From NCBI GenBank assembly GCA_963730465.1, contig CAVSRR010000006.1:432934-496933 (forward strand): DNA of 64,000 nt, written 5' to 3'. The DNA comes from an uncultured beta proteobacterium (lineage in GTDB: Bacteria > Pseudomonadota > Gammaproteobacteria > Burkholderiales > Casimicrobiaceae). Within the stretch, counting starts at the first letter, position 1. Each line of letters begins with the position of its first letter. Position numbers and translations under genes: made by a program. Positions 18,217 through 20,667 of the stretch are shown one piece after another. The notes below the pieces were generated by a model that did no database searches, was not told the DNA's origin, and worked only from the letters and a program-made list of their open reading frames with translations.

Positions 18217-18239
18217 ACGGCGGCGAGGCGATGCGCCGA

Positions 18240-19010
18240 TGAGCGGTCGCGCATCCCTTCGATCTGAGCGGCCGCCGCGCCCTGGTGACGGGCTCCGGCG
18301 GCGGTCTCGGATTCGCGATCGCGCAGGGCCTGGCGCGCGCCGGCGCTCACGTCATCCTGAACGGCCGCAACGTGGAAAAGCTCGGCGCCGCGTGGCAATC
18401 GCTGGATCGCGACGGACTCGTCGCGCACGCCGTGCCGTTCGACGTCACCGACGCTGCGGCCGTCGACGCCGCCATCAAGGATATCGAGCACCGCATCGGG
18501 CCGCTCGACATCGTCGTCAACAATGCCGCGATGAACCGGCGCCAGCCGCTCGCCGATGTCAGCGACGCGCAATGGCGCGAGTTGATGGCGGCCAATCTCG
18601 ACGCGCCCTTTTTTGTCGCGCGCGCGGTCATTCCCGGCATGAAGTCGCGCCGTCGCGGCAAGATCGTCAACATCTGCTCGCTGGCGAGCGATATCGGCCG
18701 CCCGAACATCGTTCCCTATGCGACGAGCAAGGGCGGCCTCAGGATGCTGACCCGCGCGCTCGCGGTCGAGCTCGCGCCTCACAACGTGCAGGTCAACGGC
18801 ATCGCGCCGGGATTCTTCAAGACCGACATGAATGCGCCGCTGGTTGCGGATGCGGAATTCTCCGCGTGGGTCGCGCGGCGCACGCCGGCGGGGCGCTGGG
18901 CCGAGCCGCCCGAAATTGCCGGCGCCGCGGTGTTCCTGGCGTCGGGCGCCGCCGACTACGTCACCGGTCACATCCTGTATGTCGACGGGGGCTTCAGCGC
19001 GGCGTACTAG
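18240..19010 (+). CDS. SDR family oxidoreductase (gluconate-5-dehydrogenase-like); the N-terminus probably carries 1 frame break
   Basis: TGSGGGLGFAIAQGLARAGAHV (TGxxxGxG), NNAAMN, YATSKGGLRMLTRALAVE (YxxxK), YVTGHILYVDGGFSAAY-stop at 19010. Confidence 0.85.
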
Positions 19011-19011
19011 C

Positions 19012-19368
19012 GGCGCGAGCCTCCGGGCGAGGGGCCCCGTGCGAAGCACGGGGATCGACCGGGAATTGCGAGTCGACGCGGAAGGCCGACGCGCGTCGAT
19101 CGACATCTCGGTGCAATGCAAGGAGGCCGCGGCGCGAGCCTCCGGGCGAGGGGCCCCGCGCGAAGCACGGGGATCGACCGGGAATTGCGAGTCGATGCGG
19201 AAGGCCGACGCGCATCGATCGACATCTCGGTGCAATGCAAGGAGGCCGCGGCGCGAGCCTCCGGGCGAGGGGCCCCGCGCGAAGCACGGGGATCGACCGG
19301 GAATTGCGAGTCGACGCGGAAGGCCGACGCGCGTCGATCGACATCTCGCGACGATGCAAGGAGGCTTC
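19012..19368. repeat. Tandem repeat, 3 head-to-tail copies of a 119-bp hairpin-rich unit (copy starts 19012, 19131, 19250)
   Basis: Aligned by eye: the copies differ at only 3 positions until the degenerate last ~30 nt of copy 3. Each unit carries CCCCGTGC-GAA-GCACGGGG, TCGACGCG-11nt-CGCGTCGA, GTCGATCGAC, and terminal pairing GCG(A)GCCTCC/GGAGGCCGC. Confidence 0.95.
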
Positions 19369-19393
19369 GGCGGCGGTCTCACCGTCCACCCTG

Positions 19394-19423
19394 TTAGCGG
19401 CAAGCTCGCGCGTGAGGTATAAT
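19394..19423 (+). promoter_or_regulatory. Candidate sigma70 promoter of carA (TTAGCG -35, 18-nt spacer, TATAAT -10)
   Basis: A perfect TATAAT at 19418-19423 is conspicuous in GC-rich DNA, 80 nt before the carA GTG. Confidence 0.45.
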
Positions 19424-19437
19424 TCGTCGCTTCCGAG

Positions 19438-19467
19438 AGCGGGGAAGCCACTACTGGCCTCCCCGCT
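19438..19467 (+). promoter_or_regulatory. Stem-loop in the predicted carA 5' leader
   Basis: AGCGGGGAAGCC-ACTACT-GGCCTCCCCGCT, 11 of 12 positions paired, with no U-tract after it. Confidence 0.4.
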
Positions 19468-19502
19468 TATCACGTCTACTGCCCGATTCGAGGAAACACG
19501 CC

Positions 19503-20667
19503 GTGTCCGCCGCCCACGTCCCCGCGATCCTCGCGCTCGCTGACGGGACCGTGTTTCGCGGCCGGTCCATCGGCGCGGCCGCAGCCAGCGCCGGCGAGGT
19601 GGTGTTCAACACCGCCATGACCGGCTATCAGGAAATCCTCACCGATCCGTCTTACGCCGGCCAGATCGTCACCCTGACCTATCCGCATGTCGGCAACACC
19701 GGCGTCAACCCCGAGGACGTCGAATCGAAGCGCATCTTCGCCGCGGGCCTGGTGATCCGCGATCTGCCGGCCCTGGCATCGAACTGGCGCAAGATGCTCG
19801 ATCTGTCGTCCTATCTGCGGGAGGCGGGCGTCCCCGGCATCGCCGACATCGACACCCGAAAACTGACACGGATGCTGCGCGAGCAAGGCGCGCAGAACGG
19901 CTGCATCATGGCGGGAACAGGGTCCGACGCGCCCGACGAAAAGAAAGCGATCGCGATCGCGCGCGCCGCGCCGTCCATGGCGGGGCTGGACCTCGCCAAG
20001 ACCGTCAGCTGCGCCACGCCGTACGACTGGTCGGGCAGCACGTGGGCGCTCGGCGTCGGCTATCGCGCGGGAGGAACGCCGCGATTCCACGTCGTCGCCT
20101 ATGATTTCGGCGTCAAGCACAACATCCTGCGCATGCTCGCGGAGCGCGGATGTCGTGTGACCGTGGTGCCGGCCGCAGACTCCCGCGCGCGATGCGCTTG
20201 CGCTCGAGCCGGACGGCGTGTTCCTGTCCAACGGTCCCGGCGATCCCGAGCCCTGCGACTACGCGGTCGATGCCATTCGCGCGTTTCTCGCCGCGGGCAC
20301 GCCGACGTTCGGCATCTGCCTCGGCCATCAGCTGCTCGGTCTCGCCGCAGGCGCGCGCACTACCAAGATGAAGTTCGGCCATCACGGCGCCAACCATCCG
20401 GTCCTCGACAAGGACACCGGTCAGGTGCTGATCACCAGCCAGAACCACGGCTTCGCCGTCGATGCCTCGACGCTCGCGGCCAACGTTCGGGTGACGCACG
20501 TTTCGCTGTTCGACGGAAGCCTGCAGGGCATCGCGCTCAGCGACAAGCCGGCATTCAGCTTTCAGGGTCACCCGGAGGCGAGCCCCGGTCCGCACGATCT
20601 CGCCTATCTCTTCGATCGCTTCGTGACCATGATGGAGCGTCGGACGTCGGTGCCGGAGCCGCTATGA
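19503..20667 (+). CDS. carA: Carbamoyl-phosphate synthase small (glutamine amidotransferase) subunit, 1 frame break near 20178
   Basis: [16 protein letters not shown]...[36 protein letters not shown], then [11 protein letters not shown]...[10 protein letters not shown]...HGANHPV...TSQNHGFAV...[14 protein letters not shown]. Removing one base restores [18 protein letters not shown]. Confidence 0.95.

Follow-up and report, generated by a model that had tools for sequence, protein, structure and literature searches.

What is a triplicated, hairpin-bearing element doing between a short-chain dehydrogenase (SDR) gene and carA, the gene for the small chain of carbamoyl-phosphate synthase, in an uncultured beta proteobacterium? 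The array occupies positions 19012-19368 of a 64-kb stretch of contig CAVSRR010000006.1 (hereafter the window, meaning the whole stretch analysed), and a sequence-only reading of it had leaned towards a structured RNA or DNA cruciform in the service of carA. Our comparison with other genomes leads to a different answer. The array probably arose by local amplification of one copy of a small interspersed intergenic repeat, not described before, of uncultured soil Burkholderiales (Casimicrobiaceae-like), and the family to which it belongs is probably low-copy.

The array and its family

Tandem Repeats Finder called a repeat of period 119 at 19010-19372 (3.1 copies, 95% matches, score 663, no indels), the next best array in the window scoring 63. 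The three units align over 119 gapless columns with a pairwise identity of 93-97%, so that the claim of three head-to-tail 119-nt copies is borne out. The substitutions listed in the sequence-only reading are all present and are exactly those that we find, 3-8 between units: at unit position 29, copy 1 has T and copies 2 and 3 have C; copy 2 alone carries C>T at 19196 (unit position 66) and G>A at 19214 (position 84), which are partners within hairpin B; and copy 3 deviates at unit positions 100-104 and 117-118. The phase of the unit, one base past the SDR stop codon (TAG, 19008-19010), was likewise read correctly, and the array is indeed non-coding, the long open reading frames (ORFs) drawn through it being artefacts. 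Single units also fold better than shuffled sequence on both strands (z = -1.0 to -2.9 on the plus strand and -1.7 to -3.1 on the minus strand). An inverted-repeat scan recovered hairpins A and B of unit 1 as perfect 8-bp inverted repeats (19035-19042/19046-19053 and 19073-19080/19092-19099), and hairpin B of copy 2 as another (19192-19199/19211-19218). From the end of the array it is 25 nt to a -35-like TTAGCG (19394-19399) and 50 nt to a TATAAT (19418-19423). The features of the array are as follows.

19011..19019, plus strand: CGGCGCGAG box, conserved 5' end of the element directly 3' of the TAG (family alignment)
19012..19130, plus strand: unit 1, 119 nt (tandem repeat call, alignment; covariance model score 128.3 bits)
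19131..19249, plus strand: unit 2, 119 nt, with C>T at 19196 and G>A at 19214 (tandem repeat call, alignment; covariance model score 124.1 bits)
19250..19368, plus strand: unit 3, 119 nt, with the 3' end CTCGCGACGATGCAAGGAGGCTTC, which is the single-copy state of loci L028 and L001
19035..19053, plus strand: hairpin A of unit 1, CCCCGTGC-GAA-GCACGGGG (inverted repeat; family-wide covariation)
19154-19172 and 19273-19291, plus strand: equivalents of hairpin A, each with a C.A mismatch (unit alignment)
19073..19099, plus strand: hairpin B of unit 1, TCGACGCG-11 nt-CGCGTCGA (inverted repeat; unconserved in relatives)
19192-19218 (T-A variant) and 19311-19337, plus strand: equivalents of hairpin B (inverted repeats)
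19368..19375, plus strand: CGGCGGCG, degenerate partial start of a fourth unit (direct sequence reading)

Evidence for an interspersed repeat comes from outside the window. We scanned one genome per species (185,579 species) for the 20-mer GACCGGGAATTGCGAGTCGA as an exact core, and found the complete element elsewhere in four metagenome-assembled genomes, which are labelled Pseudomonadota, Casimicrobiaceae, "beta proteobacterium" MFD06085.bin.2.144 and Burkholderiales. A metagenome scan contributed nine additional loci, and both scans together give six sites, where the upstream genes are named from their C-terminal translations, without a family search (locus labels in the form L001; x gives the number of units).

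Site 1: between the SDR gene and carA; window x3, L027 and L028 x1
Site 2: after a 763-aa Orn/Lys/Arg-decarboxylase-like gene; L006 x2, L021 x1.4
Site 3: after icd; L024 x2, L013 x1
Site 4: after a ferredoxin gene; L008 x2, L009 x1
Site 5: after an asparaginyl-tRNA synthetase (AsnRS)-like gene; L007, L014 and L018 x1
Site 6: between a short ORF fragment ending ...RLFMRGR (probably mutL) and miaA; L025, L017 and L011 x1

All six sites are intergenic, and four unrelated loci have a convergent gene downstream. The element is oriented like the upstream gene at 6/6 sites, and at sites 1-5 it begins 1 nt past a TAG at which an open frame of 138-763 aa ends (TAG+C+GGCGCGAG). Each site carries one to three copies, always head-to-tail (window, L006, L008, L021, L024), and their number varies among relatives at four sites. 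The element spans 113-127 nt across the family, with unit lengths of 113, 119, 120, 124 and 127 nt. Units at one site are 85-96% identical between genomes, those of different sites 62-82%. Site 6 is an exception, since the L025 unit is 92% identical to the site-1 units over its full length while the flanks are unrelated; at least one fairly recent transfer between loci must therefore have taken place. The sequence-only reading had named dispersed copies flanked by target-site duplications as the mark of an ordinary family of miniature inverted-repeat transposable elements (MITEs) or repetitive extragenic palindromes (REPs). Dispersal is what we observe, at six loci; target-site duplications are not demonstrated.

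Further copies in the 64-kb window were found neither by blastn nor by nhmmer --max nor by a covariance model with its filters off, and plasmids (blastn) and viral contigs (pattern scan with the 5' box) gave no match. The core 20-mer also occurs in L016, L019 and L026 (and in L012, L015 and L022), which we rejected as family members, since the match falls in coding sequence by chance. Read on its minus strand, the core encodes ...FDSQFPV..., as at the N-terminus of UreF-like proteins, and such matches would contaminate a naive k-mer census of the family.

Structure of the element and growth of the array

All copies start with (C)GGCGCGAG and end with GAGGCCG, and GCGCGAG is invariant in 15/15 aligned copies from six loci. 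The conserved 5' domain of about 75 nt consists of the CGGCGCGAG box, a rod-like fold capped by the 8-bp hairpin A, and the segment ATCGACCGGGAATTGCGAGTCGACGC. Next come a GGCCGAC box, some 35 nt of 3' sequence varying from locus to locus, and the GAGGCCG end. For the rod, RNAalifold proposed the helices CGCGA/UUGCG, CCGG/CCGG and CGA/UCG, which are beyond the reach of covariation because they are nearly invariant. Core conservation as evidence for a protein-binding site was withdrawn as an ascertainment artefact of the search pattern.

Hairpin A, as the sequence-only reading had proposed, is a real conserved structure backed by compensatory changes across the family. Among 10 distinct 19-mers from family copies, 97.5% of the cells pair, and two stem positions switch between pair types: pair 5/15 is A-U (4), G-C (4) or G-U (2), and pair 6/14 is U-A (6), C-G (3) or mismatched (1). 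No shuffle reached its covariation score. L028 has U.G at pair 6/14, and hence U-A, U.G, C.A and C-G all occur at this pair. The C.A of units 2 and 3, which had been put forward as a counter-example, is present and is merely one of the family's intermediates. On the sense strand, the intermediates are G.U in six distinct copies and C.A in one, an excess of G.U that hints, weakly, at the sense strand as the one that matters. The GCGAAGC mini-hairpin to which attention had been drawn exists in unit 1, with its GAA loop, and is unconserved, since loops CAA, AAA, ATC, ACT and GTA also occur. Hairpin A may be kept by selection, be it for recognition by a mobilising enzyme or for RNA stability, or else by template-switch correction of quasi-palindromes.

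The case of hairpin B is different. It is a perfect inverted repeat in the window, and as drawn it is not kept beyond the window's subfamily: minimum-free-energy folds of members outside the subfamily did not recover it, and several of these can form, by eye, a related 7-bp bulged stem. Its critical pair is C-G in units 1 and 3, U-A in unit 2 and a C.A mismatch in L028, L001 and L025/L027, so that it is mismatched in 3/5 distinct subfamily sequences, and L028 and L001 have a second mismatch adjoining. The double substitution in copy 2, presented earlier as covariation, is thus real, and its two positions do pair, yet it is not evidence of selection: besides the mismatches, the compensation count of hairpin B is indistinguishable from that of shuffles (408/500). 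The most likely history would start from an ancestral C.A mismatch that turned into a pair in two ways, A>G (units 1 and 3) and C>T (unit 2). Template-switch correction of quasi-palindromes predicts this outcome just as well, since it makes inverted repeats perfect without any selection for function (PMC7202029, PMC8794818). For the closing helix between the unit ends, GCCTCC/GGAGGC, no compensatory change was seen: where other members have A or G in place of the T of CCTCC, the A opposite stays the same. Hairpin B and the unit-end helix were accordingly dropped as family-wide structures, being unsupported by the family alignment, the folds and the shuffle test.

How the array may have grown can be read from the closest single copy. 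In L028, the copy is flanked on both sides by CGGCG, 119 nt apart (TAG-CGGCG-CGAG... / ...GGCCT-CGGCG-GCGG), and in the window the same 5-nt direct repeat has copies starting at 19249 and 19368, exactly 119 nt apart. The L028 copy is 96% identical to unit 3, as against 93% and 92% to units 1 and 2, which have a common derived 3' end and a mutual identity of 97%. Unit 3 thus appears to be the ancestral-like copy. From a single flanked copy, as in L028 and L027, slipped-strand or unequal recombination at the CGGCG repeats would have produced units 1 and 2, with the period set by the CGGCG spacing and further duplication following. Copy number also differs at the same site behind icd (L024 x2 vs L013 x1), the ferredoxin gene (L008 x2 vs L009 x1) and the decarboxylase-like gene (L006 x2 vs L021 x1.4), and because of these differences at three other sites we regard the amplification process as general for the family.

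The carA control region, stop codons and competing explanations

The immediate neighbours of the array are listed here.

18243..19010, plus strand: 3' part of the SDR gene (short-chain dehydrogenase, gluconate-5-dehydrogenase-like), from translation and 98-100% identical proteins with adh_short/SDR Pfam domains
19394..19423, plus strand: carA promoter-like TTAGCG-18 nt-TATAAT, from direct reading; kept in relatives without the array
19438..19467, plus strand: carA leader hairpin AGCGGGGAAGCCA/TGGCCTCCCCGCT, 13 bp, outside the repeat (inverted repeat; kept in L001-L005 and L027-L032)
19503..20667, plus strand: carA (carbamoyl-phosphate synthase small chain), from translation; L001 ortholog with CPSase_sm_chain and GATase domains, 96.6% DNA identity

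Is the element tied to carA? We collected orthologous SDR-to-carA loci via SDR homologues. Eight relatives (L002, L003, L004, L005, L029, L030, L031, L032) have a spacer of about 140-155 bp without any unit, and L028 (SDR 97% identical) and L027 have one copy between the two genes. Conservation of the unit with carA across orthologous loci is therefore not found, and the idea of a special structured module tied to carA does not hold, given also that the element stands after unrelated genes. The TTAGCG/TATAAT pair and the 13-bp leader hairpin are kept with or without the repeat (L001-L005, L027-L032); since promoter and leader remain where the unit is absent, the carA control region is independent of it. 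In this clade, the conserved region 19394-19467 may serve carA as leader or attenuator. A consensus promoter scanner did not call the TTAGCG/TATAAT pair, and neither promoter nor terminator scans made a call within the array region.

The statement that the unit matches no known riboswitch was confirmed, in that the whole window has no Rfam match at gathering thresholds. At E<=10 over 18900-19560, the only hit within the units was ClpQY_promoter, at 15-17 bits against a threshold of 42. The carA leader hairpin belongs to no Rfam family, its only match being a weak RsmW-like one (25 bits against a threshold of 52), which starts in the last 24 nt of unit 3 and lies mainly over the leader. A CsrA/Rsm sponge was considered and rejected, because GGA motifs are unconserved across members and the RsmW match is sub-threshold and mostly over the carA leader.

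The SDR-carA site seems prone to rearrangement. In L001, only unit positions ~44-118 are retained, beside a 1.2-kb island (L001 4772-6016) of GC content 0.53-0.60, against 0.66-0.70 in the flanks, that takes the place of unit positions 1-43. On its minus strand, the island carries a frameshifted polysaccharide deacetylase (PF01522) and a 184-aa ORF without assigned identity, and the apparent deacetylase frame extends into unit-derived sequence. That the element is a remnant of this deacetylase gene was rejected, as it occurs at five other sites without a deacetylase. At another set of loci, L029-L031, the sequence TGACAAGGCAACTCGG-CGGCGCGAGC, 13 nt past the TGA stop of the SDR gene, resembles the unit junction TGCAAGGAGGCCG-CGGCGCGAGC and may be the relic of a deleted array.

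The attachment to TAG stop codons is the only unusual feature of the element. A crude count of ORFs at these loci puts TAG at about 30% of stops, which gives 5/5 TAG a probability of ~0.002; the fixed 1-nt spacing is stronger evidence for anchoring than this figure. At site 6, a TAG (L017) or CAG (L025) precedes the element and is not a stop codon there. Among the empty SDR sites, L002/L003 have TAG and no motif, L004/L005 have TAG+CGGCGCGAG, L032 has TAG, 16 nt and CGCGCGAG, and L029-L031 have TGA, 13 nt and CGGCGCGAG. The CGGCGCGAG motif, full or partial, is furthermore found 3' of the last unit in L027, L006 and the window, as well as in the empty L004, L005, L029 and L032, and it may represent a target, a duplicate of the target, or what a deletion left of the element's end. 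Behind icd, the closest empty sites (L033-L036, Icd 92-94% identical) end in ATG-TGA, the filled ones (L024, L013) in ATG-TAG, and the C-terminus of Icd is ...ERM in filled and empty sites alike. An anchoring to UAG by mechanism and not through chance or tolerance, either through an insertion machinery that recognises or creates TAG, or through a termination-coupled 3' RNA module that is opened by the terminating ribosome, strikes us as quite improbable.

The icd sites also display a hairpin, A6-CCCGCCG-loop-CGGCGGG-TTCTTGT, between the convergent genes for icd and a cold-shock protein, ~60-95 nt past the icd stop in L033-L036 and at ~2065-2100 in L024. It looks like a bidirectional terminator, which the terminator scan did not call. 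At filled sites, the element lies between the stop codon and this hairpin-plus-T-tract, and the empty sites keep the hairpin-plus-T-tract. From this position and from the co-orientation with upstream genes, the element is very probably transcribed as a 3' untranslated region (UTR), and the array in the window would be transcribed as the 3' UTR of the SDR gene. Among the Icd homologues, the metagenomic proteins P0121, P0123 and P0130 (467-500 aa) have internal duplications of 50-80 residues and are most likely chimeric short-read assemblies rather than true variants.

As a working model, a REP-like 3' module has the best support, with a stable rod-like hairpin from 3 nt past the stop codon that could protect the mRNA 3' end or interfere with termination, an effect at most generic. 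Any such effect must be modulatory, given that close relatives can do without the element. For carA we expect no specific effect, since the array leaves untouched the 25 nt before the carA -35 and all that follows. We infer that the array is not a pyrimidine/arginine sensor, the promoter and leader of carA being left intact.

Several observations weigh against an amplified interspersed repeat. There are no terminal inverted repeats and no clear target-site duplication, and no transposase was seen, though none was searched for. The clustering of units by site looks like long vertical inheritance and not like active transposition. Each of the four species-representative genomes has one locus with the exact 20-mer, and the 64 kb of the window hold nothing more, so that the copy number per genome may be low. 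The invariance of ATCGACCGGGAATTGCGAGTCGACGC is an artefact of the search pattern, as L006a and L024a, tandem neighbours that were not selected by it, vary there. The single copy of L028 stands on a short-read contig and could be a collapsed array. Finally, the co-orientation, the abutment to the stop codon and the excess of G.U over C.A intermediates would also fit a functional RNA.

Such a functional RNA would be a new cis-acting 3'-UTR family, selected at the ends of particular housekeeping genes. Its rod-like 5' domain, 3 nt past the UAG and melted by the terminating ribosome, would act on termination or on ribosome rescue, or else hold up 3' exonucleases. Dosage would rise with tandem copies, and DNA mobility would be incidental. 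The placement speaks for it (6/6 co-oriented, 5/6 one nt past UAG), as do native C-termini that look intact, at icd with ...ERM in both filled and empty sites, the position upstream of the terminator-like hairpin there, the compensatory pairs of hairpin A with mostly sense-strand G.U intermediates, and persistence at the same site across genomes that are ~85-88% identical. Yet at the same gene close relatives differ in presence and absence and have 0-3 copies, so that the function cannot be essential; the 3' third is unconserved between sites; helices besides hairpin A are invariant, which leaves no covariation support possible for them; site 6 keeps the TAG/CAG before the element though there is no stop there; and compensation can come mechanically from template switching (PMC8794818, PMC7202029). 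We consider this explanation possible, though on balance unlikely. A structured RNA or DNA cruciform that controls carA can draw on the array's position 25 nt upstream of the -35-like hexamer and on the stable folding of single units. It is largely refuted by the comparison, and hardly tenable in our eyes: promoter and leader hairpin are kept in ten relatives, eight of which are without a unit, the element is co-oriented with and attached to the upstream stop at unrelated loci, four with a convergent gene next, and there is no riboswitch or other Rfam match.

A last explanation concerns the assembly, namely that one true copy was expanded to three by a long-read assembler. The window indeed has isolated 1-nt insertions against L001, the closest relative found (96% DNA identity): an extra base at 18245 loses the start frame of the SDR gene (start ATG at 18239), another at 20175 splits carA into 19503 to ~20175 and 20218-20667, and four (20749, 20781, 20791, 20839) fall in a glutathione S-transferase (GST)-like gene between carA and carB. 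These frameshifts in the SDR gene, carA and the GST-like gene are probably errors of an indel-prone long-read assembly and not pseudogenes; the L001 contig name, contig_58273_np1212, and contigs of 0.5-0.7 Mb suggest long-read metagenome assemblies. Such scattered insertion errors, together with the one copy in L028, the closest short-read relative, are what can be said for an artefact. The array itself is probably none, because each unit is exactly 119 nt long and the differences are substitutions alone, 3-8 of them in a consistent pattern, with the derived 3' end in units 1 and 2 and the ancestral one in unit 3. Independent assemblies, short-read ones among them, moreover have tandem doublets at three further sites (L006, L024, L008), and collapse in short-read assembly is the commoner error, which would lower the L028 count and not raise that of the window. 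An artefact is thus very improbable.

Known repeat classes and implications

With respect to known repeats, the element is a new family of small interspersed hairpin-bearing intergenic repeats, whose architecture is nearest to a variable-number tandem repeat (VNTR) of the MIRU type and whose likely role is nearest to REP. We filed it in none of REP/BIME (bacterial interspersed mosaic element), classical MITE, MIRU or integron attC, because the defining features of each fail.

MIRUs, the mycobacterial interspersed repetitive units that were reportedly described by Supply et al. in 1997, share much with the present family: dispersed intergenic loci with one to few head-to-tail units of ~50-100+ bp, oriented with the genes, variable in copy number and set exactly against the upstream stop codon. 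Several dispersed loci with a variable number of head-to-tail units are what we observe (six sites, 1-3 units). However, MIRUs have small ORFs that overlap the stop and start codons of their neighbours, whereas 119 cannot be divided by 3, and neither ATG nor GTG nor TTG was found as a start codon within 12 nt past the Shine-Dalgarno-like AAGGAGG at the unit end. The present family also belongs to another phylum, is unrelated in sequence and has a covarying hairpin.

REP/BIME elements are known from Enterobacteria and Pseudomonas, where REPINs are mobilised by RAYT transposases. They resemble our element in being extragenic, transcribed and hairpin-bearing, usually just 3' of genes, with compensated stems and variation between strains, and in their plausible role in 3'-end protection or termination interference. 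Liang, Rudd and Deutscher reportedly found in 2015 that E. coli REPs within 15 nt of a stop codon lower upstream expression via ribosome stalling and tmRNA. The extragenic position, mostly 3' of genes, is found here as well (six intergenic sites, five 1 nt past a stop). Yet REPs are 20-40 bp long, begin with 5' GTAG and occur in hundreds of copies of alternating orientation, whereas our element is ~119 nt long and appears low-copy. Rather than a REP palindrome of 20-40 bp with 5' GTAG, it has two unrelated hairpins, with TAG and 24 nt of non-hairpin sequence before hairpin A, and all arrays (window, L006, L008, L021, L024) are head-to-tail, without alternation.

ERIC/IRU (enterobacterial repetitive intergenic consensus, or intergenic repeat units; ~126 bp) and RIME (Rhizobium-specific intergenic mosaic elements) are alike in length (~110-130 bp), in having two palindromes and conserved boxes, and in lying in transcribed intergenic regions of Proteobacteria. 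Unlike our element, ERIC forms a single long imperfect palindrome whose ends are inverted, and it does not occur in tandem. MITE-like terminal inverted repeats are absent apart from the 6-nt GCCTCC/GGAGGC of the window subfamily, at which other members have A.A or C.C. Integron attC sites are structured, 57-141 bp long, and either start at the stop codon of the ORF before them or overlap it. We rejected this class, since RYYYAAC/GTTRRRY core sites are missing and the ends are CGGCGCGAG and GAGGCCG(C) in all copies; the element moreover follows core housekeeping genes scattered over the chromosome, not cassette arrays. A palindrome-associated transposable element (PATE) of the IS200/IS605 type, which inserts 3' of a short target and has subterminal hairpins but neither terminal inverted repeats nor target-site duplications, was attractive with regard to the TAG anchoring and was also set aside, as hairpins A and B are unrelated and tandem copies have no TAG between them; transposases were not searched for.

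What does this mean for the locus and its clade? An annotation false lead is removed, as the array is not riboswitch-like with regard to pyrimidines or arginine, and the long ORFs through it are artefacts. The locus is also a natural example of imperfect tandem hairpins that were perfected in two different ways, and it bears on the weight that a single "compensatory" pair should be given. For a poorly known clade of soil Betaproteobacteria, we describe a new sequence-defined interspersed repeat family, which is useful as a VNTR-type strain marker and points to spots that may be broken or collapsed in short-read assemblies. Repeats of this sort do not usually abut TAG so exactly as this one does at five unrelated genes, and if the anchoring were mechanistic, it would mean either a stop-codon-directed insertion or a termination-coupled 3' UTR device.

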